Below are positions 4,392 through 49,288 of a stretch of 64,000 nt of DNA, piece by piece. Position 1 is the first letter of the stretch. Each line of letters opens with the position of its first letter. Source of the DNA: Bacilli bacterium. Its GTDB lineage: Bacteria > Bacillota_I > Bacilli_A > RF39 > UBA660. The DNA is taken from contig JAFXOW010000003.1 of NCBI GenBank assembly GCA_017528315.1, forward strand, positions 95,222 to 159,221, written 5' to 3'. The notes under the pieces were generated by a model. That model saw only the letters and a program-made list of their open reading frames with translations. It was not told where the DNA came from and searched no databases. Position numbers and translations under genes: made by a program.

Positions 4392-4445
4392 TCTATCACT
4401 TCCAATTCTACTTCTATTATATCAAGTTTGTTAAACCAATTCAAC

Positions 4446-4718
4446 CTAAATTCTTATCTTTTTGAATAAATGATTATAAAGAAAGAAACTAATCAAAAAT
4501 AGAAACAGCATATAATAATGAATTATACCACCACTAATTAAATATATAAAATAAAAATAAATACTACCCATTAGAAAGAAAAATATAAAATTGGTTACTA
4601 TATTAATAATTATACTTTTAGTAAATAAAAATCTATATAATATATTAAATAAAAATGCAAATACTATTCCATATATAAAAGTAAAAACAAGAGTTCTAAT
4701 TTGTTCAATTAAAGTCAT
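4446..4718 (-). CDS. yabQ: Spore cortex biosynthesis protein YabQ-like small membrane protein
   Basis: 90-aa polytopic membrane protein. It overlaps the yabP stop by 4 nt, as the yabP-yabQ pair does in Bacilli. Confidence 0.55.
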   Translation of the reverse strand: MTLIEQIRTLVFTFIYGIVFAFLFNILYRFLFTKSIIINIVTNFIFFFLMGSIYFYFIYLISGGIIHYYMLFLFLISFFLYNHLFKKIRI

Positions 4719-5008
4719 TTAAATAACCTACTAATAACTGAATTTTCTTTTTGTTTTTTAGTTACATTTTCGGAAACGTAATTAAAACTATTTACTAGTC
4801 CCTTAATAGTAGCTATACCCTCTCTAGTATCTAATTTTACAAGTTCTAAATCACTTCCTTTAAGGACAATATATCCCATAACACTTTCAATTAAAAACTC
4901 TTCATTATCAAAACTATCTACCTTTTTAACACCACTAATAGTAACATTTTTTCTTTCTATCATATTAAACGTATGATTAAAGTTATGTATTTGATTATCC
5001 CTTTCCAT
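4715..5008 (-). CDS. yabP: Sporulation protein YabP
   Basis: 97 aa with RKNVTISGVKKVDSFDNEEFLIESVMGYIVLKGSDLELVKLD, typical of the YabP family. Confidence 0.8.
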   Translation of the reverse strand: MERDNQIHNFNHTFNMIERKNVTISGVKKVDSFDNEEFLIESVMGYIVLKGSDLELVKLDTREGIATIKGLVNSFNYVSENVTKKQKENSVISRLFK

Positions 5009-5042
5009 ATAATTCCCCCAAAAAATTATATGTTTTAAAATT

Positions 5043-5064
5043 AAAAAAAGACCAATCGGTCTTT
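5043..5064 (-). terminator. Intrinsic terminator of spoVG
   Basis: Minus strand AAAGACC-GATT-GGTCTTT followed by TTTTAA. Confidence 0.6.
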
Positions 5065-5066
5065 AA

Positions 5067-5360
5067 TTATTCTTCTTCAGTTTCACTAGTATTATGTAAT
5101 GGAGTTATTTCAGTCTTTTCAAATTGTTCTAAAATAGCATCTTCAAACATCTTTCTAGTTTCACGATTAATTGGATGAGCTATATCTTTGTGTCCACCTG
5201 GTACTTTCTTGCTTGGCATAGCAATAAATAGTCCATTGTCACCATCAATTATACGAATATCTCTTACAACAAAACATTCATCTAATTGAACAGTTGCTCT
5301 TCCTTTCATTCTTGAACCTTCTTTTTCAAATCTTGTCACGTCTACTTTTGTGATCTTCAT
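5067..5360 (-). CDS. spoVG: Septation/regulatory protein SpoVG
   Basis: MKITKVDV...GRATVQLDECFVVRDIRIIDGDNGLFIAMPSKK...HKDIAHPINRETR is canonical SpoVG. Confidence 0.95.
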   Translation of the reverse strand: MKITKVDVTRFEKEGSRMKGRATVQLDECFVVRDIRIIDGDNGLFIAMPSKKVPGGHKDIAHPINRETRKMFEDAILEQFEKTEITPLHNTSETEEE

Positions 5361-5505: not shown

Positions 5506-6282
5506 TTATGATGCTTGTACAGCACTTGCATCTACTCTAATTTTTGCTGCATAAACATAATTTGAATATACTTTATTACCAGTTTCACATCCATATTGAC
5601 TTGGATTTGCTCCAGTATTAGCAGCTACATTGTTAGCTTTTTCAACAGCATCATGAGCACAATAATCAGCATTTGGATCTGTATCTGAAATTGTAATTTC
5701 ACTACCATCAATCCATAGATTAACAGTATATGAATGAACTATATCAGTTGATCCACCAGCTGCAAATGTACCAGTTCCAAGAGTTATACCATCACCTTCA
5801 GCAGATGTTGCATCTGTTGTCATGTTAATTGTTTCTCCAGTTCCTGCTTTATCATGAACAGTTGTAGCAGCTATATCAGTAGCATGACCTGTTCCAGTTC
5901 CACTCATAATCAAACCAACTTCAGAATCTGTAAACCATTTTTTGTTTTGAGCACTTATTGTACCAGGAATTAATGAAATTGTGTAATTAATAGGACTTGT
6001 TGTTGAATTTCTTCCTGTTACAGTAAACTTAATTACAGCAACGTTTTCGTTAGCTGCAGCAGTAGTTTGAACAGAAGTAATGGTTTGTGGCATAGCATTT
6101 GTAACTTGAGCTTCAGCTTCTGTCAATAAGTAAGTGTAAATTTCACCAGTTGTGATTGTATTATTTTGATTTCCTACTTTAGCATAAGTAAAGAATGCAA
6201 ATGATACCCCAACAACAGCTACAACCAAAACAGCAATTCCTAATACTGATAATAAAACTTGTTTTGATGAATTTCCATTCAT
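5506..6282 (-). CDS. Secreted protein with TasA/camelysin-like (SipW-type) signal peptide, paralogue 1 (divergent)
   Basis: N-terminus KQVLLSVLGIAVLVVAVVGVSFAFFTYAKVGNQNNTITTGEIY. The mature part is T/A/G/S-rich with two Cys (YCAHD, YGCETG). Own promoter TTGCAA-17-TAATAT and RBS AAGGAGG. Confidence 0.55.
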   Translation of the reverse strand: MNGNSSKQVLLSVLGIAVLVVAVVGVSFAFFTYAKVGNQNNTITTGEIYTYLLTEAEAQVTNAMPQTITSVQTTAAANENVAVIKFTVTGRNSTTSPINYTISLIPGTISAQNKKWFTDSEVGLIMSGTGTGHATDIAATTVHDKAGTGETINMTTDATSAEGDGITLGTGTFAAGGSTDIVHSYTVNLWIDGSEITISDTDPNADYCAHDAVEKANNVAANTGANPSQYGCETGNKVYSNYVYAAKIRVDASAVQAS

Positions 6283-6428
6283 TTCTCTATCCTCCTTACA
6301 ATAAAAATATTAGCATATTAATGGTAGTTTTGCAATACTTTTTTTTCATATCTTTCATTGCTTTTATTTTTTGATGTAATGTTACAATTGATGTAAAACA
6401 TTTTTTACTTTTTATAGATGTAAATTAT

Positions 6429-6453
6429 AAAAAAAATAGACACAAAGTCTATT
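6429..6453 (-). terminator. Intrinsic terminator of paralogue 2
   Basis: Minus strand AATAGAC-TTTGT-GTCTATT followed by TTTTTTT. Confidence 0.65.
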
Positions 6454-6454
6454 T

Positions 6455-7258
6455 TTAAGATGCTGAATTTGCTATTTGTCCAACTACTTTTACTTTTAAT
6501 GAATAATACATTTTATCATATGTAGTTAAGTACGTATGAGCACTTGTTGAATCAGAATCAGCTGCTTCTGTTACTGTACTATTATTTAAATACAACTTAC
6601 AACCACTTGTATATGTATTGTTTGTTACGACACGATCAGATGCACAATAGGTTGTAGCAAGAGAAACATCATTCCAAGTAACTGATGTATCAGTATCAGA
6701 AATTCTTACAGTATCATTTACAAACATTTTTAAAGTATAACTATCTGTTTGTGGATTATTTACTGGAGTTCCGGCTGCAATTGAATGAGTTGCTAAAATC
6801 ATACCTGGATTTGAATCAACTGCATTTGTTACTGGTGTTGGTGTAGTTACTGATGATGTAGCACCAGCAGGTTTAGAACTCAAGAAAATACTTATCTGAC
6901 TATTAGGAAATCTAGTTTTACCACTTGGTGTATCTAACGGATTTGGTGCTACAGCATATACTGTATATGGAATAGCATTAGCTCCAGTTGAATATCCAGT
7001 AACAGTAAATGTCATTGATTGATTAGCACCTGTTAGTCCACTTGTTGCTTCACTATCATTCATTGGAAATTGATTAGTTAAACTTATTGAATTGGTTTCA
7101 GCAAAGTTCATATAGATAGAACCTGTTTCAATAGTATTAGTATTAGTTCCAGTCCTTGAATAACTAAAAAATGCAAATGACACTCCTATTATTGCTACTA
7201 CCAATACAGCAATACCAATAACAGACAACAATACTTGTTTAGAATTATTTCTTTCCAT
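6455..7258 (-). CDS. Secreted protein with TasA/camelysin-like (SipW-type) signal peptide, paralogue 2
   Basis: N-terminus KQVLLSVIGIAVLVVAIIGVSFAFFSYSRTGTNTNTIETGSIY. It shares long blocks with paralogue 3. Own promoter TTGAAG-17-TATATT. Confidence 0.55.
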   Translation of the reverse strand: MERNNSKQVLLSVIGIAVLVVAIIGVSFAFFSYSRTGTNTNTIETGSIYMNFAETNSISLTNQFPMNDSEATSGLTGANQSMTFTVTGYSTGANAIPYTVYAVAPNPLDTPSGKTRFPNSQISIFLSSKPAGATSSVTTPTPVTNAVDSNPGMILATHSIAAGTPVNNPQTDSYTLKMFVNDTVRISDTDTSVTWNDVSLATTYCASDRVVTNNTYTSGCKLYLNNSTVTEAADSDSTSAHTYLTTYDKMYYSLKVKVVGQIANSAS

Positions 7259-7310
7259 TTTCTATCCTCCTTATAATAAAAATATATCATAAATTATTAT
7301 AAACTTCAAT

Positions 7311-7349
7311 AAAAAAATACTAAAAAATATTTTTAATTTTTTAGTATTT
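7311..7349 (-). terminator. Intrinsic terminator of paralogue 3
   Basis: Perfect 14-bp AT-rich stem AAATACTAAAAAAT/ATTTTTTAGTATTT followed by a T-run on the minus strand. Confidence 0.5.
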
Positions 7350-7351
7350 AT

Positions 7352-8158
7352 TTATGCATTACCAACAACTCTTATTTTTAAAGAATAATACATTTTATCA
7401 TATGCTATCAAATACGTATGTGCTGCTCTCGAATCTGTATCAAGAGCAACAGATGGTGTACTTCCATATAATTTACATCCACTTACATAATTTCCTGTTC
7501 CCTCTGGTTCTGTCGACATTACTCTATCAGATGCACAATAATTAGTTGGGCGAGATACATCGTTCCAAGTAACAGATGCATTAGTATCAGAAATTCTTAC
7601 AGTGTCATTTACAAACATTTTTAAAGTATAGGTATCAACTTGTTCAGTATTTATTCCAGCTTTAATAGTTCCACTTGCTATAGCCCATCCAGTTGATGTA
7701 TCAACAGCTGAATTTACAACTGTAGGACTGGAAATATTATTAGTTATAGGTTGATCATTACTTGAAGATGTTGAACTAATAAATACACTTATTTGACTAT
7801 TAGGAAATCTTGTCTTACCACTCGGTGTATCTATTGGATTAGGTGCTATTGCATATATTGTATATGAAATTGCAGAAGTTCCACTAGAATAACCCGTAAT
7901 AGTAAAAGTCATTGATTGATTAGCCCCAGTTAATCCATTTATTGCTTCACTATTTGTTATTGGAAATGAATTAGTTAAACTTATAGTACTACTTTCGTTA
8001 AAAAACATATATATTTGACCTGTCTGTATAATATTATTAGCTGTTCCCGTTTTAGAATAACTAAAAAATGCAAACGATATTCCAACTACAGCTATTAATA
8101 ATATAATTATTGATATAATTGCAATTACTATTTCTACTGATTGATGTTTATTTTTCAC
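7352..8158 (-). CDS. Secreted protein with TasA/camelysin-like (SipW-type) signal peptide, paralogue 3
   Basis: GTG start 9 nt after GGAGGA. N-terminus IIILLIAVVGISFAFFSYSKTGTANNIIQTGQIY. Own promoter TTGTCA-17-TATATT. Confidence 0.55.
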   Translation of the reverse strand: MKNKHQSVEIVIAIISIIILLIAVVGISFAFFSYSKTGTANNIIQTGQIYMFFNESSTISLTNSFPITNSEAINGLTGANQSMTFTITGYSSGTSAISYTIYAIAPNPIDTPSGKTRFPNSQISVFISSTSSSNDQPITNNISSPTVVNSAVDTSTGWAIASGTIKAGINTEQVDTYTLKMFVNDTVRISDTNASVTWNDVSRPTNYCASDRVMSTEPEGTGNYVSGCKLYGSTPSVALDTDSRAAHTYLIAYDKMYYSLKIRVVGNA

Positions 8159-8263
8159 TTAGCCATCCTCCTATATTGTGAATATATCACATATTCTATA
8201 AATTGACAATACTATTTTAATTTATTTTAACTATGAAATGTAAATCAAAGATTATATTTTTTA

Positions 8264-8824
8264 TTAATAACCCCATCTCATAATTTTAAACTCTAAATTA
8301 CTATATTCTCCTAAATAAGAAGAAATACTTTCACTTTCAAATAATAATTTCATATTAAAATCAGTAACATCTATTCTTCTATCTAATACTATTGCTATAA
8401 AATTTATTTTATGATCTGATACTTTAATTATTGAACCACACGGAATAATATCAGATGCTGCAAGGATTCTTACATTACCATATGTTCTATCTTTATAATA
8501 AATTTTATTAATTATTTTAGAATTAGTTTCACATTTAAAATCTTGATAATCTAGTCCATAACCCATAATATTTCCTTTAAATTTTATTAAATTACCTTGA
8601 TTATTATTAAAATCTTCTATAGAAAATACTTCTATATAATTAGGTTCTTCTTTATCTATTTTTACTATTCGAGATGATTTAATTGATTTTACTGTATTTA
8701 TATTACTAGCAACTATAACATTTTTATTATTGCTAGTTGCAACTATAAATAATAAAGCAATTACTAAAAATAAACAAAAGAAATATTCTTTTAAAGAAGT
8801 ATTATTCTTATGTTTATATCTCAA
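8264..8824 (-). CDS. Membrane-anchored protein with a 3D/RlpA-like (double-psi beta-barrel) C-terminal region, YabE-position
   Basis: TTG start after GAGGTGG, N-terminal TM segment. The C-terminus NVRILAASDIIPCGSIIKVSD...AIVLDRRIDVTDFNM resembles 3D-domain proteins. It sits directly after tatD, as yabE does in Bacillus. Promoter TTGACG-17-TATATT. Confidence 0.4.
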   Translation of the reverse strand: MRYKHKNNTSLKEYFFCLFLVIALLFIVATSNNKNVIVASNINTVKSIKSSRIVKIDKEEPNYIEVFSIEDFNNNQGNLIKFKGNIMGYGLDYQDFKCETNSKIINKIYYKDRTYGNVRILAASDIIPCGSIIKVSDHKINFIAIVLDRRIDVTDFNMKLLFESESISSYLGEYSNLEFKIMRWGY

Positions 8825-8914: not shown

Positions 8915-9679
8915 TTAACCTAATCTTTTATATTGGTTTACTACATTATTAGTTGTAATTTTAATTACTTCTTCTAGACTTATTCCTTTTATATTAGCTA
9001 AATTCTCACATATAATACTTATATTTTTAGGTTCATTCTTTACACCACGAAATGGTTCTGGAGAAAGATAAGGACTATCTGTTTCTAAAACGATATTTTC
9101 AAGGGGAATATATTTTAAAGTTTCTTTCAAATTAGTATTTTTAAATGTTGATACTCCTCCTATTCCTAGTAAATATCCTTCTTTAATATACATTTTAGCT
9201 ATTTCTAAACTTCCAGTAAAGCAATGAATTGTTGTTTTTAATTTATATTCTTTTAAAATATTAATTGTATCATTTGTTGCCTCTCTTGAATGAATAATAA
9301 CAGGCATATCTAATTTTTTAGCTAAATCTAATTGCTCTTTAAATAATTTAATTTGTTCTTTTTTATTATCTTTATTATGATAATAATCTAAGCCTATTTC
9401 TCCTATACCAATTATTTTTTGATTACTTTTAATTAATTTTTCAAAGTAAGTAATAGTTGTATCATTAAAAGAATCTATTTCATCTGGATGAAGTCCTATT
9501 GTTAAATAAATATTAGGGTATCTATTTATAATTTCTAATAATTCTTCAATATTTTTTAAATCACAACAAGAAAGAATTAAATTTTCGACATTATTATCCC
9601 TAGCTCTTTTTATAATTTCTTCTATATCATCTTCCGAATTTAAATGAAAATGAGTATCTGTTAAACTATTTAGTTTCAT
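8915..9679 (-). CDS. tatD: TatD-family metal-dependent DNase/hydrolase
   Basis: DTHFHL start, GEIGLDY, IHSR and a C-terminal ETDSPYL motif. Confidence 0.9.
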   Translation of the reverse strand: MKLNSLTDTHFHLNSEDDIEEIIKRARDNNVENLILSCCDLKNIEELLEIINRYPNIYLTIGLHPDEIDSFNDTTITYFEKLIKSNQKIIGIGEIGLDYYHNKDNKKEQIKLFKEQLDLAKKLDMPVIIHSREATNDTINILKEYKLKTTIHCFTGSLEIAKMYIKEGYLLGIGGVSTFKNTNLKETLKYIPLENIVLETDSPYLSPEPFRGVKNEPKNISIICENLANIKGISLEEVIKITTNNVVNQYKRLG

Positions 9680-12077: not shown

Positions 12078-12288
12078 AAAAAAAAGAGACTTTCACCTCA
12101 AGGACGAAAATCTCGTGTTACCACCTTATTTTACATATATTTCTATATGCCTCATTACTTATAACAGAGCAACCTGTATATTTCTATAAACTCCAAAACC
12201 ATCTTCCATTTTTCTAAATTAGTTTCTTTCACCAATTGAAACCTCTCTTTAAATTCTTTCAAATGTACTCATTTCTTCCTCGTTTTAT
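12078..12288 (-). promoter_or_regulatory. T-box riboswitch leader, probable Met specifier (AUG)
   Basis: Read on the minus strand. Promoter TTGAAT-17-TATAAT with TG extension. Stem I elements AGAGAGG...TGGTGAAAG. Candidate specifier GAAAAAUGGAAG. T-box sequence AAUAAGGUGGUAACACGAG. Terminator GAGAUUUUC...GAAAGUCUC followed by U8. Confidence 0.8.
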
Positions 12289-12315
12289 GCTCGTATTATA
12301 TCACAAATTTTAAAT

Positions 12316-12834
12316 TTATTCAAGATATTTCTCTAAATAATGATTCATTAAATCAACTAACTTAGTATCGATATTTTGATAATTATCACTTAAGAAAATA
12401 ATTAAACCAACTGTATCACCATTTATAATTATAGTTTTAATAAGATAAGTACTATCTATAACATTTTCACTGCTAAGTAATAAATTTATCTTTGTTTGTT
12501 TTATTACTTCTCTTCTTTCATCTAAAATATTCGAAAGATAAGGACTCAACTCTTTACATACTAAATACTGATAATTTTTACTTACTATTTTAAAATTATT
12601 TAAATTAGTAAGTAAAATATCTACTTTATAAACATCACTTATAATATCCAAAAGATTTTTTAAAGCATTATCACTCTCATCTAATTCTGAATAACGATTT
12701 AAAATTATTTCTTCTCCTTGAACATTTATTTCAACTTGTTCATTTTCTTTAATTTTTAAAACTTTTCTTATTTCTTTAGGAATAACTATTCTTCCTAAAC
12801 TATCTACTCTTCTAACCATTCCTGTTGTTTTCAT
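12316..12834 (-). CDS. spoVT: Stage V sporulation regulator SpoVT (AbrB-type N-domain plus C-terminal sensor domain)
   Basis: N-terminus MKTTGMVRRVDSLGRIVIPKEIRKVLKIKENEQVEI (swapped-hairpin AbrB fold). The 172-aa length and the position near mfd match Bacillus. Confidence 0.8.
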   Translation of the reverse strand: MKTTGMVRRVDSLGRIVIPKEIRKVLKIKENEQVEINVQGEEIILNRYSELDESDNALKNLLDIISDVYKVDILLTNLNNFKIVSKNYQYLVCKELSPYLSNILDERREVIKQTKINLLLSSENVIDSTYLIKTIIINGDTVGLIIFLSDNYQNIDTKLVDLMNHYLEKYLE

Positions 12835-23433: not shown

Positions 23434-23449
23434 TCAATCACACCCAAAT

Positions 23450-23525
23450 AAAAAGTGCACACAAGAGATGAATGTTAAGGCTGCTACTTTCCAGTCCTGA
23501 CCTGGTTCCACCTCTCTTGTTGCAC
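23450..23525 (-). ncRNA. ffs: Small SRP RNA (4.5S-like, domain IV hairpin only)
   Basis: The minus strand GUGCAACAAGAGAGGUGGAACCAGGUCAGGACUGGAAAGUAGCAGCCUUAACAUUCAUCUCUUGUGUGCAC folds as one long hairpin. Its apical part matches the conserved SRP motif ACCAGGUCAGGUCCGGAAGGAAGCAGCC of E. coli 4.5S. Promoter TTGCTT-17-TAATAT places +1 near 23525, and a U-run follows the helix. Confidence 0.8.
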
Positions 23526-23750
23526 GTATATATATTACTACATTTTATTTATTAAAGCAAGGATTTTCTAAATTTAATTAAAAATAAAATATTAATTTTT
23601 GTGTACAATTTATGTCAAATTTACGTATAACCTCTTGACAAGAATTGGTTTGTTTTTGCTATAATGTATATAGTTCTTTATAGCCCCTAAAAGTACTTAA
23701 GGGCCCAATAGTATATAAATGGTTTCGCGAAAAACGGATTTTTTATCCAC

Positions 23751-26401: not shown

Positions 26402-28336
26402 CTATATATCCAAGTTTTTAACAAACTCAGCATTTTCTTCAATAAATGTACGACGAGGTTCAACTTCATCTCCCATTAATTTCTCAAATATTGAATCTGC
26501 TGCTATGCAATCGTCTACTGTTATCTTTCTAAGAACTCGTTTATTTATATCCATTGTTGTTTCATTTAATTCTTCAGCATCCATTTCTCCTAATCCTTTC
26601 ATACGAGCAATTTCAGCACGATTTCTAATGTTTTCTGGCAAAGAATTCATATAGGCTTCCTTTTCTTCATCAGTTAAAACATATTTTCTGGTTTTCCCAT
26701 GCATAATTCTAAATAGTGGAGGTTGGGCAGCGTAAACATGTCCTGCTTCAACTATCGGTCTAAAGAAACGGTAGAAAAGTGTTAATAGTAAAACTCGAAT
26801 ATGTGAACCATCAACATCGGCATCGGTCATGATGATAATCTTATCATATCTTAATTTTGATAAATCAAAATAATCTCCTATCCCTGTTCCAAAAGCCGAT
26901 ATTATTGTTTTTATTTCTTCATTTCCCAAAGCTCTATCAAGACGTGCTTTTTCGACATTTAATATTTTTCCACGAAGTGGTAATATTGCTTGAGTCATTG
27001 AGTCACGTCCTTTTTTAGCACTTCCACCAGCTGAATCTCCCTCGACTATAAATATTTCTGATATGGTTGGATCTTTACTTTTACAATCTGATAACTTTCC
27101 AAAAAAGTTAGTTGTTGCTAAATCGCTTTTTCTCGTTGCTTCTCGGGCTTTCTTTGCAGCCATACGAGCATTTCTTGCAAGTATTGCCTTACCAATAATC
27201 ACTTTAGCTTCTTCAGGATTTTCTAATAAGAAGTTTTCAAAGCCATCAGAGAAAACACTATCAGCAAGATTTTTTACTTCACTATTACCAAGACGTCCTT
27301 TGGTTTGTCCTTCAAATTGAGGATTTGGATGTTTACAAGAAATAATCATGGTAAGACCTTCCTTAACATCATCCTCTTTTAAATTTTCATCTTTTTCTTT
27401 TAAAATATTATTTTTTCTAGCATAACTATTGATTACTCTTGTTAAAGCACGTTTTACTCCATCTTCATGGGTTCCACCATCATGAGTATTAATGTTATTA
27501 ACAAATGAATAAATATTAGCATTATATGAAGTATTATATTGCATTGCAACTTCAAAGAATACTCCATCTTTTTCCCCTGTTAAATGAATAATATCTTCAT
27601 GAATCGGTGTTTTTTCTTTATTTATAAAACGCACATATTCACTTATTCCACCTTCATACATGAATGTTTCGCCGGTTGTATCTTCTAAATCCCTATCATC
27701 TCTAATATTAAGTGATAATCCTCTATTTAAAAAAGCAAGTTCACGAACTCGTGTTTTTAATGTTTCATAATCATATATTTCTGAATCAAAAATATCAGGA
27801 TCAGGTTTAAAAGTTACAGTTGTCCCTGTTCTGTTTTCATCACATTCTCCAATTACATGAAGAGGTTCGGTTGTATGTCCTCCATTTTCAAATCTGATTT
27901 TATGAATTTTACCATTTTTATAAACAAATACTTCTACCCATTTAGATAAAGCGTTTACAACACTTGCTCCAACTCCATGAAGTCCACCTGATACTTTGTA
28001 TCCTCCTCCACCAAATTTTCCTCCGGCATGAAGTACTGTATAAACCGTTTCCACCGTTGAAATATGTGTCTTTGGATGAATATCTACTGGTATTCCACGA
28101 CCATCATCTTTTACTGTTATAGAATTGTCTTTATTTATTACTATTTCTATATTATTACAATATCCTGCTAATGCTTCATCTATTGAGTTATCTACTATTT
28201 CCCAAACCAAATGATGAAGTCCCTTAACATCTGTTGTACCAATGTACATTCCTGGTCTTTTTCTAACCGCTTCAAGCCCTTCTAATACTTGTATTGCTGA
28301 TGAATCATAATTTTCCATTACTTTTTCTTCTTGCAT
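26402..28336 (-). CDS. gyrB: DNA gyrase subunit B (start 28336 with a GGTGG RBS; alternative ATG at 28318 overlapping the recF stop)
   Basis: GHKL ATPase motifs ([14 protein letters not shown]), Toprim EGDSAGG and PLRGKILNV. Confidence 0.97.
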
Positions 28337-29454: not shown

Positions 29455-29581
29455 AAATACGTTCCTTTTGCCTTTAAAACAATTTTTTAGTTAAGTAATA
29501 TACCTATACCTGCTTATATATTATATCACAAATTTAGCCTAAAACAACCCCAAATAACATTTTTAGACATTTTTAAGTACT

Positions 29582-29617
29582 ATAAAACCCTAATTAAGAA
29601 AATAATCTTAATTAAGG
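29582..29617 (-). terminator. Intrinsic terminator of the comK-like gene
   Basis: Minus strand CCTTAATTAAG-ATTATTT-CTTAATTAGGG followed by TTTTAT. Confidence 0.65.
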
Positions 29618-29628
29618 CAAATATTATT

Positions 29629-30090
29629 TTACATTGTTTTTTTCTCTATTCTTTTACTAAATAATTGTTGTAGTCGTGTAGCTCTTAGAAGTTGCATCTC
29701 AAATGACGAACAAGACATACGTAAAACAACACTTTTTCCACCTTCAAAGGTTACTTTAGTATATCCTCCTTGAGGTTCATATTTAGAGACATTATTAAGT
29801 GATATCCAAGAACATTTATTATTTGCTAAACCATTTGTTGGAAAGAAGATAATACTATTGGTTTCTTCAACAATAATTGGTAATTTATAATTACTACCTA
29901 ATATCATCTTAGTACCTTTAAGTCTTCCATCATAGCTACTTCCATAAAAAGAACAACTATCTTCCATTACCTCAAAACTAGTTTTAGGCAAAAAATATTC
30001 CTGATTATTTTCTATCACCTTAGATACTTCATCGTTAACATTTAAAACAGCACAAGTGTTCTTATTAATTTCATAACTATCAATATCCAT
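29629..30090 (-). CDS. comK: ComK-family transcription factor
   Basis: Aligns block by block with my recollection of B. subtilis ComK. SCSFYGSSYDGRLKGT matches SCRFFGSSYAGRKAGT. YKLPIIV matches HKPPIMV. IIFFPT...CSWIS matches IFLFPT...CGWIS. VTFEGGKSVVL...SSFEMQLLRA matches VTFSNGKTMEL...NSFENQVYRTA. RBS AGGGGGTGA. Confidence 0.8.
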   Translation of the reverse strand: MDIDSYEINKNTCAVLNVNDEVSKVIENNQEYFLPKTSFEVMEDSCSFYGSSYDGRLKGTKMILGSNYKLPIIVEETNSIIFFPTNGLANNKCSWISLNNVSKYEPQGGYTKVTFEGGKSVVLRMSCSSFEMQLLRATRLQQLFSKRIEKKTM

Positions 30091-30166
30091 TACTTCACCC
30101 CCTATACATTTAAATTAAATCTAAATTTTTTCACTTGAAAATGAATAAAACTTAAATTTGGTTGAT

Positions 30167-30210
30167 ACTATAACAGATATATTTGTCGAATATTTGCACG
30201 TTTTGTCGAA
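30167..30210 (-). promoter_or_regulatory. comK-like promoter: two perfect Spo0A 0A boxes plus -10 TATAGT
   Basis: TGTCGAA at 30184-30190 and 30204-30210 (read TTCGACAAA in the gene direction, 20 bp start to start). The -10 TATAGT is at 30172-30167, 11 nt from the proximal box. There is no recognisable -35. Confidence 0.6.
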
Positions 30211-30249
30211 AAGAAAAAAAATAAGAAAATTTTTGATTTTTTTCTTATT
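30211..30249 (-). terminator. Intrinsic terminator of dnaN
   Basis: Minus strand AATAAGAAAA-N10-TTTTCTTATT followed by a T-run. Confidence 0.55.
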
Positions 30250-30272
30250 CATTTAGTTAAATTTTTCATTTT

Positions 30273-31394
30273 TTAATATGTTCTAATTGGAAGTATTAAT
30301 TGAATTAAATTATCCTTATCTTTTTCTTTAAATATAATCGGATTAACTTCACCAACAAATGATATTTCGCATTCTTCTTCAGAAAAAACTTTTAAAGCTT
30401 CCATTACATAACGAGCACTAAAGGAAATTGTAATATCTTCTTCTCTATCTTTTTGAATAGTCATTTTTTCTTCTACTCTTCCTATTTCTGCACTTGATGA
30501 TTTCATTGTTAAAATATTTCCATTTGTTTCTAATGTTACAACATTCTTTTCTTTATCACTTGTTAAAATACTAACACGATCTATTACATTATATAAATCA
30601 TTTACATTAACAGTAATTTTTAAAATACTATCTGTTGGAAGCAAATTAGTGGTATTAGGAAAATTTCCATTTATTAGTCGACTTTGAAATAAAACATTAT
30701 CATATTTAAATAGTATCTTATTATTAAAGATATGAAGTTCTATTTCCTGTTCATCATCCGTTAAAAGTTTAGCAATCTCGACAATATTTTTACTAGGTAT
30801 AACAATATTATAATCTGTATCACTCATAGTTTCTAATTTTAATACCTTACGAGCAAGTCTATAAGAATCTGTTGAATTACATTCTAAAATATCTCCTACT
30901 ATCTTAAAATTTAATCCAGTAAGTTCTGGTCTTGTTTCGTCTGTTGCTGCTGCAAAGGCTGTTTGATTAATTAAATCTTTAAATACTTTAGCATTTAACT
31001 TAATTGCAGTTTTACTTTCTTCTAATTTAATATTTGGATATTCTGATTTATTAATACCATTTAAATTATATTCACTGTTTTCTGTTGATATAATTACTTT
31101 AAGTTCATCAAATACTTCTAAATTAATCATTTTATCAGGAAGTTTACGAACTATATCTAATATATATCTTCCGGTTATAATTATACTCCCCTCTTCTTCA
31201 ATTGTCATATCATCTGTTGTTTTTATAAAAGTTCTGATGGTTATATCATTATCACTAGCTGTTAAAGTTAAACCTTCACTAGTTAAATCAAATTTTATTC
31301 CTGCTAAAGCTGGTACTAAATTTTTAGTAGAAATTGCTTTAGCTACTTTGTTTAAATTTTCTAATAATAAATCTTTTTTAATTTTTATTTTCAT
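30273..31394 (-). CDS. dnaN: DNA polymerase III beta sliding clamp
   Basis: 373 aa in a three-domain clamp pattern, ending in LILPIRTY. It sits directly downstream of dnaA. Confidence 0.95.
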   Translation of the reverse strand: MKIKIKKDLLLENLNKVAKAISTKNLVPALAGIKFDLTSEGLTLTASDNDITIRTFIKTTDDMTIEEEGSIIITGRYILDIVRKLPDKMINLEVFDELKVIISTENSEYNLNGINKSEYPNIKLEESKTAIKLNAKVFKDLINQTAFAAATDETRPELTGLNFKIVGDILECNSTDSYRLARKVLKLETMSDTDYNIVIPSKNIVEIAKLLTDDEQEIELHIFNNKILFKYDNVLFQSRLINGNFPNTTNLLPTDSILKITVNVNDLYNVIDRVSILTSDKEKNVVTLETNGNILTMKSSSAEIGRVEEKMTIQKDREEDITISFSARYVMEALKVFSEEECEISFVGEVNPIIFKEKDKDNLIQLILPIRTY

Positions 31395-31457: not shown

Positions 31458-31657
31458 TGTGGAAAACGGTGGATAACTTATTGAAACTCTTTAATATCAA
31501 CTGTTTACAAAGACTTTTAATTGTGGATAACTATGTGGATAACTCATAGTTTTCCACAATAAGATGTTTATAACTATTTATATTTTTTAAATTTATTAAC
31601 AAAAATATGTTTAAAACTATAAATAATTTATTAGTTATCCACAATTATTGTGGATAA
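31458..31657. other. oriC part 2 (dnaA-dnaN spacer): 7 DnaA boxes flanking an AT-rich candidate unwinding element
   Basis: Boxes at 31458 (TGTGGAAAA), 31468 (GGTGGATAA), 31522 and 31534 (TGTGGATAA), 31550 (TTTTCCACA), 31635 (TTATCCACA) and 31649 (TGTGGATAA). The stretch 31560-31630 is almost pure A/T. Confidence 0.85.
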
Positions 31658-33127: not shown

Positions 33128-33416
33128 GTTTTCCACAATAATATGTGGATAAGTAATAGATTATGGTGGATAACTATGTGGATAAGTTTTTTATAAAAAT
33201 AGTTTTCCACAAGTTATCCACATAGTTTTCCACATATAAAACTCTTTATTATCAACAAGACTTTGAGTTTTCCACAATTATCCACAATTTACTTTTCCAC
33301 ATGTGGATATAGTTTTCCACACTTATGTGGATAACTATCAAAAATTTATCTAAAGTGATACTAATTTTTATTAAATTAATGTAAATTATAAATATTTAAT
33401 ATTAATATTGTGGAAA
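33128..33416. other. oriC part 1 (upstream of dnaA): cluster of 14 DnaA boxes
   Basis: 9-mers TTATCCACA or TTTTCCACA, or their complements, start at 33128, 33143, 33164, 33176, 33202, 33213, 33225, 33267, 33277, 33292, 33301, 33312, 33325 and 33408. Two deviate: 33164 is GGTGGATAA and 33301 is TGTGGATAT. Confidence 0.9.
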
Positions 33417-33486
33417 ACTCAAAGTAATTTTACAAAAACAATAAAATATGGTAGAATTTGTTTGAAAAAGGAGAATTAGAAGTATT

Positions 33487-37613: not shown

Positions 37614-37673
37614 TTTAACAAAATAATTAGTCTTAGCTGATTAATTATTTTTCTTTTTAATTTATTGTCAAAA

Positions 37674-37707
37674 TTCGACAAAGTTCGACAAATAAGTTCT
37701 ATATAAT
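37674..37707 (+). promoter_or_regulatory. Promoter of the nucleotidyltransferase cassette: two perfect Spo0A 0A boxes plus -10 TATAAT
   Basis: TTCGACA at 37674-37680 and 37684-37690 (complement of TGTCGAA, 10 bp start to start). TATAAT is at 37702-37707, 11 nt after the proximal box. There is no -35 at 17-bp spacing. Confidence 0.6.
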
Positions 37708-37725: not shown

Positions 37726-38637
37726 ATGACAAATGAATTAAAAAAATTAACTAAAAAAATTGATAAAGAATTTATTGAATATTTTCTATCAGATGTGGAG
37801 GTAGAAACAATCTTTGTAGCAGGGTCTATGGCTTATGATGACTATCAAGATAGAGAGGATAATGATTATGATATTCGGGTAATAGCAAAAGAAGTTAATC
37901 GAGATAAAATTATTAATTTTGAAAAATTTCTAGAAGAGTTATCTCGTAAACTATCTACCCCAAGTATAGAAGTAGGCTATTCCTGTTTAGTAGGACCGGT
38001 AAATCATAAAGTATCAAGTGATAAAAAGAATATTTTAATACATGCAATGATACATAGAAGTGATCAAATGGATGGTTTTTTACCGGTTACTCATAAATAT
38101 CAATATGGAAGTAGATATAGAATAGTATATGGAAAAGATTCTTTAGAAAGATTTCAAAATATAAGGTATAATATAGATGAACTAGTAAATGCTCATGAAG
38201 GGCTTTATTATTGTATTGATATGTTAAAGCATAAAGAATACCGTTATTTAACATGGGATACAGATAATAATAAATGTGAATTTAATTATCATTTTGTGGA
38301 GATGACAGAGGATATAGTGTTGGAAATTTGTTTTTATTCTGTTAATAAATTTGTAGATAACTTAATAAATTATTGTAAATGGGAAAACTATGAAATAACA
38401 GAAAACAAAGTAATATTTTGTATAAGATTACTTGGACAAGAAAATGTTAATGAAAGCATTTTATTTTTACTTCAAGGATTATTAACCAAAAGTGAATCAT
38501 TACTAAAAGCTATATTTCATGATCCTCTACAAGAAACTATCAACTTACTTGAAAAATTTGTCCAAAAAGTTTATTTAATAGATAATATTTTTCCTAAAAA
38601 AGAACTAGAAAAAGTTAAAAAATTAGCAAGGAGTTAA
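37726..38637 (+). CDS. Putative Pol-beta-superfamily nucleotidyltransferase with a helical C-terminal domain
   Basis: N-terminal IFVAGSMAYDDYQDREDNDYDIRVI fits the G-S...[DE]x[DE] NTase pattern. RBS GGAGG. Confidence 0.45.
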   Translation: MTNELKKLTKKIDKEFIEYFLSDVEVETIFVAGSMAYDDYQDREDNDYDIRVIAKEVNRDKIINFEKFLEELSRKLSTPSIEVGYSCLVGPVNHKVSSDKKNILIHAMIHRSDQMDGFLPVTHKYQYGSRYRIVYGKDSLERFQNIRYNIDELVNAHEGLYYCIDMLKHKEYRYLTWDTDNNKCEFNYHFVEMTEDIVLEICFYSVNKFVDNLINYCKWENYEITENKVIFCIRLLGQENVNESILFLLQGLLTKSESLLKAIFHDPLQETINLLEKFVQKVYLIDNIFPKKELEKVKKLARS

Positions 38638-38642
38638 AAAAT

Positions 38643-39755
38643 ATGGAAGTAAATTATGAAGAAAATAATCTTGTAAACTTATCTAATTCAATTTTAAAGT
38701 ATTTTGGAATAAAACCATTTCATAATACTTTAGATGTTCTTGATAAAGAATTAGAAGAGAATAAATATAAGAATGTTGTATTATATGTCTGTGATGGTTT
38801 AGGTTATTATAATTTAAAAAAAGTATTAAAGTCTAATAGTTTTTTAAAACAAAAGAATCAAAATAGGAAAATATCAAGTGTCTTTCCTCCAACTACAACT
38901 GCAGCTACTACTACCCTACTCTCAGGACTTACTCCCTCAGAACATCATTGGTTTGGTTGGGATATGTATTTTAAAGATACAGATGAAACTACTTCTTTGT
39001 TTTTAAATTTAATTAAAGATTCTAGTACTAAATCCAAATTAAATGTATTAGATAGAGAATATATGAACTATAAAAATATAGTTGATTTAATTAATGAGAA
39101 TACCAATAATTTAGCTTATTTTGCCTACCCTTTTAGTAAAGATAATAAATGTTTAAATATTGATGATGTAAATAATCGAATTAAAGAACTAACTAAGAAA
39201 GAAGGTAAAAAGTTTATTTATGCTTATATTGAAAATCCTGATAAATTAATGCATAAATACGGAATATTTTCTCAAGAAGTAAAGAAAGAAATATATAATA
39301 TAAATGAAAAAATTGAAAAATTAAGTCAAGAGCTACATGATACTCTTATTATAGTAACAGCAGATCATGGATTAATACCAACAAAATCCATTATATTAAG
39401 TCGTGATTTAAAAGAAATGTATGATATGTTAGAAAGAACAACTTCTATAGAACCAAGATGTGTTGGAATAAAACTAAAAAAAGAAATTCAGAAAGAAGAG
39501 TTTATTAATTTATATAAAAAAGAACTTCTAAATGACTTTAAATTATTAACAGTAGAAAAAGCAATAGAAAGTCATTTATTTGGTCTAAAAGATAGCATTT
39601 ATCTTCGTGATACAATTGGAGACTATCTATTAATTGCAACTAATAATATAGCCCTATTCTATGATGAAAAGGCTCCTAAATTTAAGGCTAATCATGCTGG
39701 ACTCTCTAAAGAGGAATTAGAAGTACCACTTATAATGATTGATTGCAAATTATAA
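38643..39755 (+). CDS. Alkaline-phosphatase-superfamily protein (type I phosphodiesterase/nucleotide pyrophosphatase-like)
   Basis: VVLYVCDGLGYYN, SVFPPTTTAATTTLLSGLTPSEHHWFGW and IIVTADHGL resemble the metal-ligand and nucleophile motifs of the AlkP/NPP fold. It starts 5 nt after the upstream gene. Confidence 0.55.
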   Translation: MEVNYEENNLVNLSNSILKYFGIKPFHNTLDVLDKELEENKYKNVVLYVCDGLGYYNLKKVLKSNSFLKQKNQNRKISSVFPPTTTAATTTLLSGLTPSEHHWFGWDMYFKDTDETTSLFLNLIKDSSTKSKLNVLDREYMNYKNIVDLINENTNNLAYFAYPFSKDNKCLNIDDVNNRIKELTKKEGKKFIYAYIENPDKLMHKYGIFSQEVKKEIYNINEKIEKLSQELHDTLIIVTADHGLIPTKSIILSRDLKEMYDMLERTTSIEPRCVGIKLKKEIQKEEFINLYKKELLNDFKLLTVEKAIESHLFGLKDSIYLRDTIGDYLLIATNNIALFYDEKAPKFKANHAGLSKEELEVPLIMIDCKL

Positions 39756-44200: not shown

Positions 44201-44343
44201 AAATGTTAATTATTTATAGAATAATTTGACATTTTTTTCTTTGGGAAATTACTTTTTATAAGGAATTTAAAAAAAAATAATTGTATTTTTAAAAAATGTG
44301 ATATAATAATTATGTGTTGAGGGGAAATAATTGTTGGAGTGTG

Positions 44344-46548
44344 ATGTTGATGAATGAAGAAAGCGAAAATCAAGTTGTTAATTTAAGAATAGATGATATA
44401 ATTCCTAATAGATTTCAACCTCGGGAAATATTTGATGAATCAGGACTAGAAGAATTATCAGAATCCATTAAAGAACATGGTGTCATTCAACCTATAATTG
44501 TCCGACAAGTTGGAGATAAGTATGAACTGATTGCTGGAGAACGAAGAACCAAGGCATCATCTTTAGCTGGATTAACTACTATACCTGCAATAATACGCAA
44601 TATGGACGATAAAGAGTCTGCTAAAGTATCCTTGCTTGAAAATTTACAAAGAAAGAATTTAAGTGCCATTGAAGAAGCTAGAACGTATAAAAGAATTTTA
44701 GAAATTGATAATATGACTCAAGAAGATTTAGCTAGAAATTTGGGAAGAAGTCAACCGATGATTGCCAATAAACTTAGGCTTTTATCACTTCCTGATGAAA
44801 TACAAGATGCTTTAATGAAAAATCAAATATCTGAACGGCATGCAAGAAGTTTATTAACAGTTAAAAATAAAAAAGATCAATTGATGTTTTTAGATAGAAT
44901 AATAAATGAACGATTAACAGTTCGAGAACTGGATAAAGAATTAAAAAAATATAAAGAAAATCCTCAAAGTAATGATGATCCAATGCCAGAAGAAATATTA
45001 TCGATAGATGATGAAGATTCGAAAAAAGAAAATAATAAAGGAATAGAAGAGAGTAATGAAAGGAGTTTTATGAATAATAATATAGGAAATTTTGGAGGAA
45101 TGGGATTAAACGATTATAATAACGGAGCAAATAATAATATGTTTTATAACGTTCCTAATAATTTTAATAATATGCCAAATATGAATAATAGTATGAATAA
45201 TTCAAATATTAATTATAATAATTTTGATGAAGAACCAGAAGATAATGAAAATGTTCAAAATGATTATTTTGCTAATATGAATAATAATCAAAATAATAGT
45301 TTTAATCAAAATCAAGAAAGCTCACTAGGATCAATGTTTGATAATTATAATGGAGAAAATAATAATTTACAAAATGATAATAATTCTAATTTATTTGTAA
45401 GTCATATAAGAGAAGATAATTTACCAAAGGTAGAAAATCAATTTTTACCTAACTTTGATAATTTTAATAATAATGAATCAAATAATGATGATGATACCAG
45501 AGAGGCTTTAAATAATTTTAATCAAAATAATGATTTTAATGAACAAAACAATTATAGTTTAGATACTAACAATACTATGATGAATAATGATTTTAACATG
45601 AATAATAATTATCATAATAATCACATGAATGATATGAATTTTAATCAATTATCTGGTATGAATAATTTAAATAATTATAATCAGAATAATTATTCAACCC
45701 CTAATAATATGATGAATAATAATTTTGGAATGAATAATGGTTTTGATTATAATAATAATCAATTTAATATGCCAAATATGAATAATACGAACAATTTAAA
45801 TTCTAATCTTCCAAATAATAACTATTTTATGAATGATTTGAATAATAATTATATGAATAATCAAAATGGAATGAGTAACAATATGAATAATAATATGGGT
45901 TCGAATTTCTACAATAATATGTGGAATAATAATTTAAATCCAATGACTCAACCAATGAATAATAATCCAATGAATAGTTCTAATTTTAATAATTATAATA
46001 ATTCTCCTATAGATTTTTCTCAAAATATAAATCCTGAAGTAAATATGTATCAACCAAATCAAGGTGGACTATTTAGGCAACCATTAAATATTGTTGATGT
46101 TCCAAATAACAATTATGTACCTTTAGAAAACAATACTTATGAAGAACAACCAAGTAATATAGAAAATGATAATTATATGTTAAATAATCAACCACTACCA
46201 AGTGAAGAATTTGAAGAAAATGAATTAAATGAACAATTAAATAATGTAGAACCAAAAGAAGAAACCAATATACCTGAAATAGAAGTAATTGGAGAAACAA
46301 CTAAAGAAGATGAAGTTAAAGAAGAAAATACTGTACAAGATGATGAAACTAAAGAAGAAACTAAACAAAATGATTATATTAATTTAGATCCAGTTTATAC
46401 AATAAATTCAACAATGGATGCCGTTTTAGAACTAAAAAAGACAACTGATAGAATTAAACAAAACCATATTGATATTGAAACGGAAGAAATAGATTTCGAT
46501 GACGTATATCAAATAACTATTAAAATTAAAAAGACTGATACACTCTAA
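44344..46548 (+). CDS. noc: Nucleoid occlusion protein Noc (ParB family) interrupted by an Asn-rich low-complexity insertion of about 470 aa (the ORF track starts at GTG 44314; ATG 44344 or 44350 is more likely)
   Basis: ParB N-domain IPNRFQPREIF...HGVIQPIIVR...LIAGERR, HTH LTQEDLARNLGRSQPMIANKLRLL and ISERHARSL. It sits after rsmG and before soj-spo0J. The C-terminal 59 aa are again ParB/Noc-like. Confidence 0.85.
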   Translation: MLMNEESENQVVNLRIDDIIPNRFQPREIFDESGLEELSESIKEHGVIQPIIVRQVGDKYELIAGERRTKASSLAGLTTIPAIIRNMDDKESAKVSLLENLQRKNLSAIEEARTYKRILEIDNMTQEDLARNLGRSQPMIANKLRLLSLPDEIQDALMKNQISERHARSLLTVKNKKDQLMFLDRIINERLTVRELDKELKKYKENPQSNDDPMPEEILSIDDEDSKKENNKGIEESNERSFMNNNIGNFGGMGLNDYNNGANNNMFYNVPNNFNNMPNMNNSMNNSNINYNNFDEEPEDNENVQNDYFANMNNNQNNSFNQNQESSLGSMFDNYNGENNNLQNDNNSNLFVSHIREDNLPKVENQFLPNFDNFNNNESNNDDDTREALNNFNQNNDFNEQNNYSLDTNNTMMNNDFNMNNNYHNNHMNDMNFNQLSGMNNLNNYNQNNYSTPNNMMNNNFGMNNGFDYNNNQFNMPNMNNTNNLNSNLPNNNYFMNDLNNNYMNNQNGMSNNMNNNMGSNFYNNMWNNNLNPMTQPMNNNPMNSSNFNNYNNSPIDFSQNINPEVNMYQPNQGGLFRQPLNIVDVPNNNYVPLENNTYEEQPSNIENDNYMLNNQPLPSEEFEENELNEQLNNVEPKEETNIPEIEVIGETTKEDEVKEENTVQDDETKEETKQNDYINLDPVYTINSTMDAVLELKKTTDRIKQNHIDIETEEIDFDDVYQITIKIKKTDTL

Positions 46549-47631: not shown

Positions 47632-48417
47632 ATGGGAAAAATAATATCATTAGTTAATCAAAAAGGAGGGGTTGGAAAAACAACGACTAGTATAAATTTA
47701 TCTGCATCTCTTGCCTTACTAGGGGAAAAAATATTATTAATAGATTTGGATCCCCAAGGAAATGCTACAACAGGTGTTGGAATAAATAAAGGAGATATCG
47801 AAAATAGTATTTATGATTTATTAACCAACAATTGTTCGGTAGAACAAGTGATTTTAAAAACCAATTTTCATAATTTAGATATAATTCCTTCAACTATTCA
47901 GTTAGCAGGAATTGATATAGAGTTTATTGAAAAAAGTAAAAATGATCCAACATTTAAAAGAGCATATCAATTAAAAGAGAAAATAGAAGTAATTAAAGAT
48001 AAATATGATTACATAATAATTGATTGTCCACCAAGTCTTGGGAATATAACAACCAATGCTTTAACTTGTAGTAACTCCGTTATAATACCGGTTCAATGTG
48101 AGTTTTTTGCTCTTGAAGGGATTACACAGTTATTAAATACTATAATGTTAACTCAAAAAAATTTAAATCCCAATTTAGATTTAGAAGGAGTTTTACTTAC
48201 AATGTTATCTAAGTCAAATTTAGGACTTGATGTTATAGAAGAAATCAGAAGTTATTTTAAAGATAGAGTATATGATACAATTATACCAAGGTTAATAAGA
48301 CTAGCAGAAGCTCCAAGTCATGGGAAACCAATTGTAGCTTATGATCCCAAAAGTAAAGGGTCAGAAGCTTATATTAATTTAGCAAAGGAAGTGATTATGA
48401 GAAATGGAAACAACTAG
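47632..48417 (+). CDS. soj: Chromosome partitioning ATPase ParA/Soj
   Basis: Deviant Walker A NQKGGVGKTTT and IIDCPPS. Confidence 0.95.
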   Translation: MGKIISLVNQKGGVGKTTTSINLSASLALLGEKILLIDLDPQGNATTGVGINKGDIENSIYDLLTNNCSVEQVILKTNFHNLDIIPSTIQLAGIDIEFIEKSKNDPTFKRAYQLKEKIEVIKDKYDYIIIDCPPSLGNITTNALTCSNSVIIPVQCEFFALEGITQLLNTIMLTQKNLNPNLDLEGVLLTMLSKSNLGLDVIEEIRSYFKDRVYDTIIPRLIRLAEAPSHGKPIVAYDPKSKGSEAYINLAKEVIMRNGNN

Positions 48418-49288
48418 AAGAAGAGCCTTAGGACGAGGCTTAGAAGAATTATTTAGTGGAGAGGTATTGGATTTTGATAGTTTAGAAGAAAAGATAATTG
48501 AAGAAACGCCTAAAGAAGAAATAATGCAAGTAAAACTTTCAGAATTAAGAAGTAATCCATATCAACCAAGAAAAGTGTTTGATGAAAATGCTTTAAATGA
48601 ACTTGCTAATTCTATAAAGGAACATGGTGTATTTCAACCGATTATAATAAAAAGAAGTATTAAAGGCTATGAAATTGTTGCTGGAGAAAGACGTGCAAAA
48701 GCCAGTAAATTAGCAGGACGTGAGACAATACCAGCAATTGTTCGAGACTTTAATGATCAAGAAATGATGGAGATTGCCCTTCTTGAAAACTTACAAAGAG
48801 AGGATTTAAATCCAATAGAAGAAGCAATGGCTTATCAAAATTTGATGAACTCTCGAGGACTAAATCATGAGCAATTAGCTGAAAGAATAGGTAAAAGTCG
48901 TAGTTATGTAACCAATATGGTTGGACTTATGAATTTGCCTGATTCTGTTAAAGAGTTAGTAATTGCTAAGAAAATATCAGCAACTCATGCTAGAACTTTA
49001 AGTAAAATTAAAGATCCTTTAAAAGTAGAAGAAATGGCTGATAGAATTATAAATGAAGGGCTTACAACAGCAGCAATTGATGAATTAGCTAAAGATAAAA
49101 CAGTTGAAAAACGTAATAAGATGGAAAGAAGAGAAACTGAAGAGAATAGAACTTATAAATATATTCAAGATTTACTATGTGATCGTCTTTCTACTAAAGT
49201 TAGAATTAGAGGAACGAAGATAGAAATTAATTTTCAAGATTTAGAAGATTTTAATCGCATAATAGAAGCTTTAAAATTAGATGAATGA
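48404..49288 (+). CDS. spo0J: Chromosome partitioning protein ParB/Spo0J
   Basis: NPYQPRKVF, GVFQPIII, VAGERR and the HTH LNHEQLAERIGKSRSYVTNMVGL. Confidence 0.95.
   Translation: METTRRRALGRGLEELFSGEVLDFDSLEEKIIEETPKEEIMQVKLSELRSNPYQPRKVFDENALNELANSIKEHGVFQPIIIKRSIKGYEIVAGERRAKASKLAGRETIPAIVRDFNDQEMMEIALLENLQREDLNPIEEAMAYQNLMNSRGLNHEQLAERIGKSRSYVTNMVGLMNLPDSVKELVIAKKISATHARTLSKIKDPLKVEEMADRIINEGLTTAAIDELAKDKTVEKRNKMERRETEENRTYKYIQDLLCDRLSTKVRIRGTKIEINFQDLEDFNRIIEALKLDE

Follow-up and report, generated by a model that had tools for sequence, protein, structure and literature searches.

Tandem consensus 0A-type boxes stand in place of a -35 element at the comK promoter of uncultured low-GC Bacilli

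What controls comK in bacteria whose sporulation and competence are known from gene inventories only? The question applies to RF39, a widespread gut order with small genomes and no cultured members, and it is raised here by the comK promoter within a stretch of 64,000 nucleotides (the window, meaning all of the DNA analyzed) from a genome of about 25% GC. The window spans the replication origin: its GC skew changes sign near 33 kb, and the minus strand carries gyrA-gyrB-recF-comK-dnaN-dnaA, after which the plus strand continues with rnpA-yidC-jag and other genes. An earlier note on this DNA had taken the gene at 29629-30090 (minus strand, 153 aa) for a ComK homologue, and it is indeed a full-length one, matching PF06338 over profile positions 2-152 of 152 (E 6.8e-38; 130 bits against a cut-off of 22.3). 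The protein is identical to NCBI MBR3660394.1, “MAG: competence protein ComK [Bacilli bacterium],” and has more than 1,200 relatives; its contigs come from ruminant gut assemblies, and the nearest species representative, RGIG4316 (ComK 77% identical), was classed by its authors as Bacilli; RF39; UBA660, a relative by which the window, too, would belong to RF39. With a terminator-like hairpin 3' of comK (29587-29618, minus strand) and a weak AU-rich hairpin plus U-run 3' of dnaN (30215-30254, minus strand; fold of -6.7 kcal/mol, z-score -1.3), comK looks like its own transcription unit. No further competence genes were identified among the scanned window ORFs of at least 90 aa (about 13 such ORFs were left unscanned).

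The region upstream of comK has an unusual architecture. Two copies of TGTCGAA were found on the plus strand, at 30184-30190 and 30204-30210, exactly where the earlier note had placed them, and in the direction of the gene each is part of the 9-mer TTCGACAAA (30190 to 30182 and 30210 to 30202), the two lying 20 bp apart. Read toward comK, the sequence is TTCGACAAA - ACGTGCAAATA - TTCGACAAA - TATATC - TGT - TATAGT. The distal box (30202-30210, minus strand), an exact 9-mer, would occupy about -50 to -42 relative to the probable transcription start, and its orthologous position is kept in relatives. The proximal box (30182-30190, minus strand), predicted to lie at about -30 to -22, is conserved more strongly than the other positions of the array. 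Between them (30192-30200, minus strand) is a degenerate copy, CGTGCAAAT, at a position where many relatives have a box that is good or even perfect and where information content is intermediate in an alignment of 27 promoters. A gap of 11 nt, the distance noted before, separates the end of the proximal heptamer from TATAGT (30172 to 30167, minus strand), and the TGT just ahead of it (30175 to 30173) makes this an extended -10 (30167-30175, minus strand) without a -35 partner, of which both the TG and the pattern TAnnnT are kept in relatives. The reported lack of a -35 at 17-bp spacing also withstood scrutiny: the hexamer there is AATATT, a 1/6 match, and a generic promoter scan of 29500-30400 returned no sigma-70-type -35/-10 pair, against 6.2 expected in shuffles. 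The canonical sigma-70/sigma-A arrangement, with a -35 located 16 to 18 bp upstream of the -10, was found neither here nor at the second promoter described below, and an Rfam scan returned no RNA element at either promoter.

The extended repeat is far from random. TTCGACAAA occurs 4 times in the window where 0.48 copies are expected, and none of 100 shuffles contained four or more. The heptamer TGTCGAA alone is not significant (6 copies against 2.6 expected, with 6 of 100 shuffles reaching 6). The assertion that the window holds only four perfect copies was thus right for the 9-mer and wrong for the 7-mer, of which two more lie on the minus strand within the coding regions of a tatD-like gene (9584-9590) and gyrB (26951-26957).

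Conservation extends well beyond this genome. A scan that kept one genome per species yielded 40 comK loci, each of them in a low-GC MAG of an uncultured bacterium from the gut of herbivores or humans, with ComK proteins 37 to 77% identical to that of the window. Upstream of comK, nearly all had TTCGACA-type boxes, two or three per locus, in a single orientation and with a 10-bp period; the middle box was the most variable of the array, and several lineages had three perfect copies. When 27 promoters were aligned on the proximal box, information peaked at the distal and proximal boxes, the TG, and the -10, with background levels between them; it was highest on CGAC, and the A/T flanks were conserved as well. 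Among 41 promoters, the distance from the start of the proximal box to the start of the -10 was 18 nt in 28 and 19 nt in 6, the other spacings mostly reflecting a script that chose the wrong box. The -10 in related comK promoters was often TG-extended, and there was no -35. In two loci (L034 and L035), the boxes stay at comK although the upstream gene is not dnaN. The box array at the comK promoter is real, non-random, and deeply conserved. Within-species variation was too low to be informative; in one widespread human-gut species, the comK middle box is polymorphic (L175 and L179 versus L170; TTCAACA versus the consensus TTCGACA).

Specificity was assessed in the window plus the 40 loci (702 kb), with an array defined as at least two phased boxes, none of them with more than 1 mismatch. 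Each of the 37 arrays recovered from these 702 kb preceded either comK or the gene at the second position (37/37). TTCGACA itself occurred 106 times against about 40 expected, with 74 copies in arrays and 32 solitary; the latter number is at or below the 40 expected by chance, and the solitary copies fall mostly in coding sequence. Because the arrays are confined to two promoter types and the solitary copies stay at chance level, the motif is not common genome-wide, and the objection anticipated at the outset, that the 9-mer might abound without promoter association, does not apply to this sample.

The second promoter type is represented in the window itself. A recurrence of the comK-like architecture had been proposed for 37674-37707, and it is present on the plus strand: boxes at 37674-37682 and 37684-37692 are followed by TATAAT at 37702-37707, the whole reading TTCGACAAA - G - TTCGACAAA - TAAGTTCTA - TATAAT, and the proximal heptamer again ends 11 nt before the -10. 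The two adjacent boxes (37674-37692) leave a 3-bp spacer between heptamers, and the -10 starts 18 nt after the start of the proximal box. No -35/-10 promoter was found on the plus strand at 37674-37707, and with both the -35 and the TG extension missing, this promoter is expected to have little activity unaided. Downstream is a two-gene operon (37726-39755, plus strand) encoding a 303-aa nucleotidyltransferase-like protein (Pfam Polbeta, 23.6 bits, which is below the cut-off) and a 370-aa phosphodiesterase/PglZ-like protein of the alkaline-phosphatase superfamily (Phosphodiest, E 9e-21; PglZ, E 3e-7); no NCBIfam family reached its cut-off for either protein. The gene pair has orthologues in eight loci, next to jag, with the boxes upstream kept in four of the loci (L002, L003, L020, and L023) and partly kept in three (L008, L016, and L017). 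In three more loci, another gene takes this position and likewise has boxes upstream. In this promoter family, the distance from box start to -10 was 18 nt in most loci, by a hand count on the relatives' sequences. On the minus strand, 37644-37671 holds a near-perfect TTGACA-16-AATAAT promoter-like site that is directed away from the operon and may be due to chance; its TTGACA comes from the opposite strand of a degenerate, inverted 0A-like box (ATTGTCAAA) that immediately precedes the two perfect boxes.

Which protein, then, recognizes these arrays? The reading that we favor, with a probability of roughly 78%, is that they are bound by the sporulation regulator Spo0A and control the comK and second-operon promoters, whichever the direction of control. 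The Spo0A site described for B. subtilis consists of the core TGTCGAA with A/T flanks, and Spo0A of C. difficile recognizes the same core. The identification of TGTCGAA as a Spo0A recognition element (0A box) accordingly agrees with what is described for both species, in core and flanks alike, and TTCGACAAA is the reverse complement of TGTCGAA plus A/T flanks, a match of 9 in 9 positions. Spo0A contacts G2, C4, and G5 of TGTCGAA (equivalent to C6, G4, and C3 of TTCGACA), and in the 27-promoter alignment these are the best conserved positions of the arrays; the variant boxes ACGACA, ATCGACA, and ATCGCCT (the last in L033) retain all three. The usual Spo0A dimer site comprises two boxes 3 bp apart, and same-orientation boxes with this spacing occur at 37674/37684 and in most of the comK relatives; the comK array of the window has the 20-bp gap with its degenerate middle box. 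A literature search for the extended 9-mer returned primer sequences only.

The layout also invites comparison with a different family of response regulators. In the classic pho-box promoter, direct repeats bound by a response regulator take the place of the -35, and their array stops about 10 bp short of the -10. Some other regulator, either of the OmpR/PhoB type (e.g., PhoP) or a lineage-specific factor, could therefore bind the repeats, with their match to the 0A box being coincidental. This reading would be in keeping with an alkaline-phosphatase-superfamily phosphodiesterase in the co-regulated operon, with the phosphate that DNA uptake could supply, and with the fact that no spo0A gene has been tied to this genome. 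It may also draw on a distant relative (L033:9930-10000), where three phased repeats, ATCGCCTT/ATAGCCTT/ATCGCCTT, replace TTCGACAA and the distance to a TG-extended -10 is 18 nt; such a concerted change of three repeats is what might be expected from a less constrained regulator, and we regard it as mild evidence against Spo0A. However, a coincidental regulator would have to account for the complete 9-of-9 agreement with the flanked 0A box and for the same boxes upstream of spo0A in low-GC Bacilli contigs (see below), and no candidate regulator is encoded beside comK or the second promoter among the window ORFs scanned. Pho boxes are direct repeats of CTGTCAT or TT(A/T/C)ACA with an 11-bp period, and the arrays do not conform to this pattern, having a period of 10 bp and a conserved CG core that the TT(A/T/C)ACA boxes of PhoP lack. 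We consider another regulator improbable.

Autoregulation by ComK was weighed as well. ComK activates its own promoter in B. subtilis, and the boxes always travel with comK, yet ComK boxes are AAAA-N5-TTTT pairs, a pattern that the repeats do not fit, and the direct repeat resembling ComK AT-boxes that does exist lies elsewhere, in the comK leader. We judge it very improbable that the repeats are ComK sites. Further candidates were rejected: a sigma-H -10 would be on the wrong strand, a DnaA box has the wrong sequence, and three phased copies argue for a transcription factor rather than for the -35 of an alternative sigma factor.

A reading that invokes Spo0A presupposes a spo0A gene, and its absence from this organism seems unlikely given the sporulation proteins in the window, the RF39/UBA660 affiliation of the nearest relative, and the reported presence of spo0A in UBA660 MAGs. 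Among the proteins of the window, YabP scores 92 bits (cut-off, 75) and YabQ 41 bits (cut-off, 32), both above the NCBI equivalog cut-offs; a SpoVT-like protein and SpoVG are encoded there as well. A published survey limited to spo0A-containing MAGs included six from UBA660, and a study of 2650 Bacilli genomes predicted RF39 to be spore-forming and named only two RFN20 families as lacking spo0A. A tblastn search of the window and the 40 comK loci with a B. subtilis Spo0A sequence gave no match, as expected for DNA that is origin-proximal. The sporulation-type genes themselves lie not far from the origin, on the minus strand at 4083-5360 and 12316-12834, with spoVG, yabP, yabQ, and divIC in a B. 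subtilis-like order and the SpoVT-like AbrB-domain regulator beside mfd. No spoIIE was seen between divIC and tilS, in agreement with reports of RF39 without spoIIE.

Spo0A itself was sought by a metagenome scan with an AT-rich back-translation of its recognition helix, which returned 120 Spo0A loci (L050-L169), including a 19-member cluster on contigs of 24 to 29% GC; conservation of the recognition helix among these loci is partly circular, as the scan pattern forces the helix. Proteins of the low-GC cluster match the DNA-bound Spo0A domain 1LQ1 (E 2e-43) and belong to a family of more than 8,000 sequences in a profile search, for some of which the NCBI name is “Spo0A [Bacilli bacterium].” Upstream of the genes of this cluster lie TTCGACAAA boxes, single or in tandem, in the same orientation. 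No connection to the comK-bearing genomes emerged from these loci: the 120 Spo0A loci shared no genes with the RF39 DNA of the window and comK loci, ten NCBI-sourced Spo0A relatives had no accession near MBR3660394, and matching the samples of ComK and Spo0A contigs gave no overlap, so that no Spo0A was tied to a comK-bearing MAG. The low-GC spo0A usually lies directly downstream of tpiA, not of spoIVB (e.g., L065:7680-7700, L083:3840-3860, and L112:8356-8376), and in several of these loci the TTCGACAAA boxes are followed by a conserved CTAGA...TCTAG-type motif.

How might Spo0A act at these promoters? Both the identity of the binding protein as Spo0A and the direction of its control are inferred. 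In the mechanism that we propose, up to three helically phased boxes with a 10-bp period, all pointing toward the gene, would be bound by Spo0A~P as head-to-tail dimers. The array would span roughly -51 to -22 (a numbering that presumes a transcription start 6 to 9 nt after the -10) of a sigma-A-type promoter that has a -10, TG-extended at comK, and no -35. Spo0A~P would thereby set the activity of two origin-adjacent promoters, one driving comK and the other driving the nucleotidyltransferase-like/phosphodiesterase-like operon, which makes the latter a likely Spo0A target.

As to direction, our analysis leans toward activation as somewhat more likely than repression, with a little over half of the weight on the former, about a third on the latter, and the small remainder on a dose-dependent mixture. 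Activation is favored because the geometry resembles that of a pho-box promoter, in which a response-regulator array ends about 10 bp before the -10 and replaces the -35; because the second promoter lacks the -35 and the TG extension alike; and because two unrelated promoters keep orientation and spacing constant across deep divergence. The opposite reading treats the array as an operator: Spo0A~P bound at -51 to -22 would shut a constitutive extended -10 promoter at the initiation of sporulation, in both operons. Several features suit such an operator. The best conserved box is centered near -27, inside the core promoter and in the zone of usual repressor binding; the TG-extended -10 at comK could function without an activator; the B. 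subtilis PcomK box that overlaps the -35 (R1) is repressive; and at the phage promoter A2c, two core-overlapping boxes exclude RNA polymerase. Moreover, consensus 0A boxes would be filled at low Spo0A~P, as at abrB. Steric occlusion, however, needs neither a strict spacing of 18 to 19 nt nor a fixed orientation, both of which are seen here in two unrelated promoters and in distant lineages, and the second promoter, with no -35 and no TG, offers little activity to repress. ComK in B. subtilis is growth-arresting and auto-activating, behavior with which constitutive ComK in growing cells is hard to reconcile. On balance, we hold repression at both operons to be rather unlikely.

The closest precedent is the comK promoter of B. 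subtilis, for which the direct binding of Spo0A~P, cited in the earlier note, is documented (PMC3297582). That promoter has five imperfect 0A boxes, each with 1 or 2 mismatches, which are intermingled with the sites for Rok and ComK (Mirouze et al. 2012, PMC3297582); three upstream boxes activate and two core-promoter boxes repress, the promoter has a normal -35, and Spo0A~P first raises and then shuts the basal rate (PMC3297582). The comK promoters described here would share with it the regulator-target pair and a logic in which competence is gated by the output of the sporulation phosphorelay, and they too have several 0A boxes, one of which overlaps the -35 region. What sets them apart is that their consensus boxes, two or three in number, form a single phased array whose distance to the -10 is fixed; a -35 is lacking, and nothing points to Rok-type control. 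The principle of a Spo0A-comK connection is therefore already known, and what we describe would be a simpler and stronger form of it, conserved through an uncultured order, with an architecture that is unusual and not unprecedented.

Other known systems resemble the arrays in part. Like spoIIG and spoIIE of B. subtilis, these would be sigma-A promoters with a usable -10, no properly spaced -35, and 0A boxes in the -35 region. In spoIIG and spoIIE, the boxes that occupy this region are weak, there is a -35-like hexamer 21 to 22 bp from the -10, and activation by Spo0A goes via sigma region 4; a role of sigma in activation at promoters of this type is described in the literature. The proximal position differs: a consensus box lies at -30 to -22 here, and we know of no case among spoIIG/spoIIE-type promoters in which one is as close. 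In E. coli PhoB and B. subtilis PhoP pho-box promoters, tandem repeats likewise replace the -35, end about 10 bp before the -10, and are fixed in orientation and spacing; the protein family, the period (11 bp in theirs), and the repeat sequence differ, such that the likeness concerns a possible way of working and not membership. Finally, same-orientation heptamers 3 bp apart and bound by Spo0A dimers are found at abrB and in promoters and origins of phages phi29 and Nf (four consecutive 0A boxes in the phi29 origins), but those arrays repress transcription or block replication and have no fixed distance to a -10. Three phased 0A boxes, an 11-nt gap, and a -10 make a compact natural promoter design that bears on how Spo0A acts from a site as close as -27.

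The comK leader offers a second possible input. An element of about 45 nt, AAATTTRAGTTTT-CCAC-N5-7-GTGGAT-AAAATTTRAATTTT, is conserved in most close relatives (L001-L020 and L023) between the -10 and the comK ribosome-binding site, and an alignment of the relatives' leaders placed a degenerate copy at 30117-30159 (minus strand) in the window. The element comprises two DnaA boxes in inverted arrangement, TTTTCCACN and TTATCCACA, both of them variants that the oriC of this genome also uses, and a direct repeat 30 bp apart; in the window leader, the DnaA boxes have decayed. An RNA hairpin was considered for the leader and rejected: RNAalifold gave -1.7 kcal/mol with almost no covariation, and this weak fold leads us to read the leader as protein-binding DNA. 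The oriC itself is bipartite like that of B. subtilis, with DnaA-box clusters flanking dnaA downstream (31458-31657) and upstream (33129-33417); DnaA boxes with at most 1 mismatch number 37 against 22 expected, and no shuffle reached 37.

Taken together, a broader and decidedly more speculative reading can be framed, one we hold to be doubtful as a whole. In RF39 and related reduced-genome gut Bacilli, comK inside the dnaA-dnaN-recF-gyrB cluster could be a core gene directly activated by Spo0A, and with the DnaA-box pair in the leader of most members could form a minimal circuit at the origin in which starvation (Spo0A~P) and replication status (DnaA) decide the state of ComK. Wiring from Spo0A to ComK would then be ancestral in Bacilli, not a refinement of Bacillus, and the nucleotidyltransferase/phosphodiesterase operon would represent a previously unrecognized function of the Spo0A regulon. 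The conserved consensus array at comK provides a concrete and testable regulatory link in RF39, and it suggests that direct control of ComK by Spo0A may be older and more central than its fine-tuning role in B. subtilis.

Several other features of the window deserve mention. Four consecutive ORFs on the minus strand at 5506-8824 (258, 267, 268, and 186 aa), between spoVG and the tatD-like gene, had no Pfam match. A T-box leader lies at 12097-12289 (minus strand) upstream of an SPFH/Band 7 gene and metG, and the small SRP RNA at 23440-23536 (minus strand) lies between gyrA and a deaminase gene. On the plus strand, 44314-46548 encodes a 744-aa protein whose first ~215 residues hold a ParB N-terminal domain and a ParB HTH domain and whose long C-terminal part has no assignment; this gene is upstream of two ORFs at 47632-49288.
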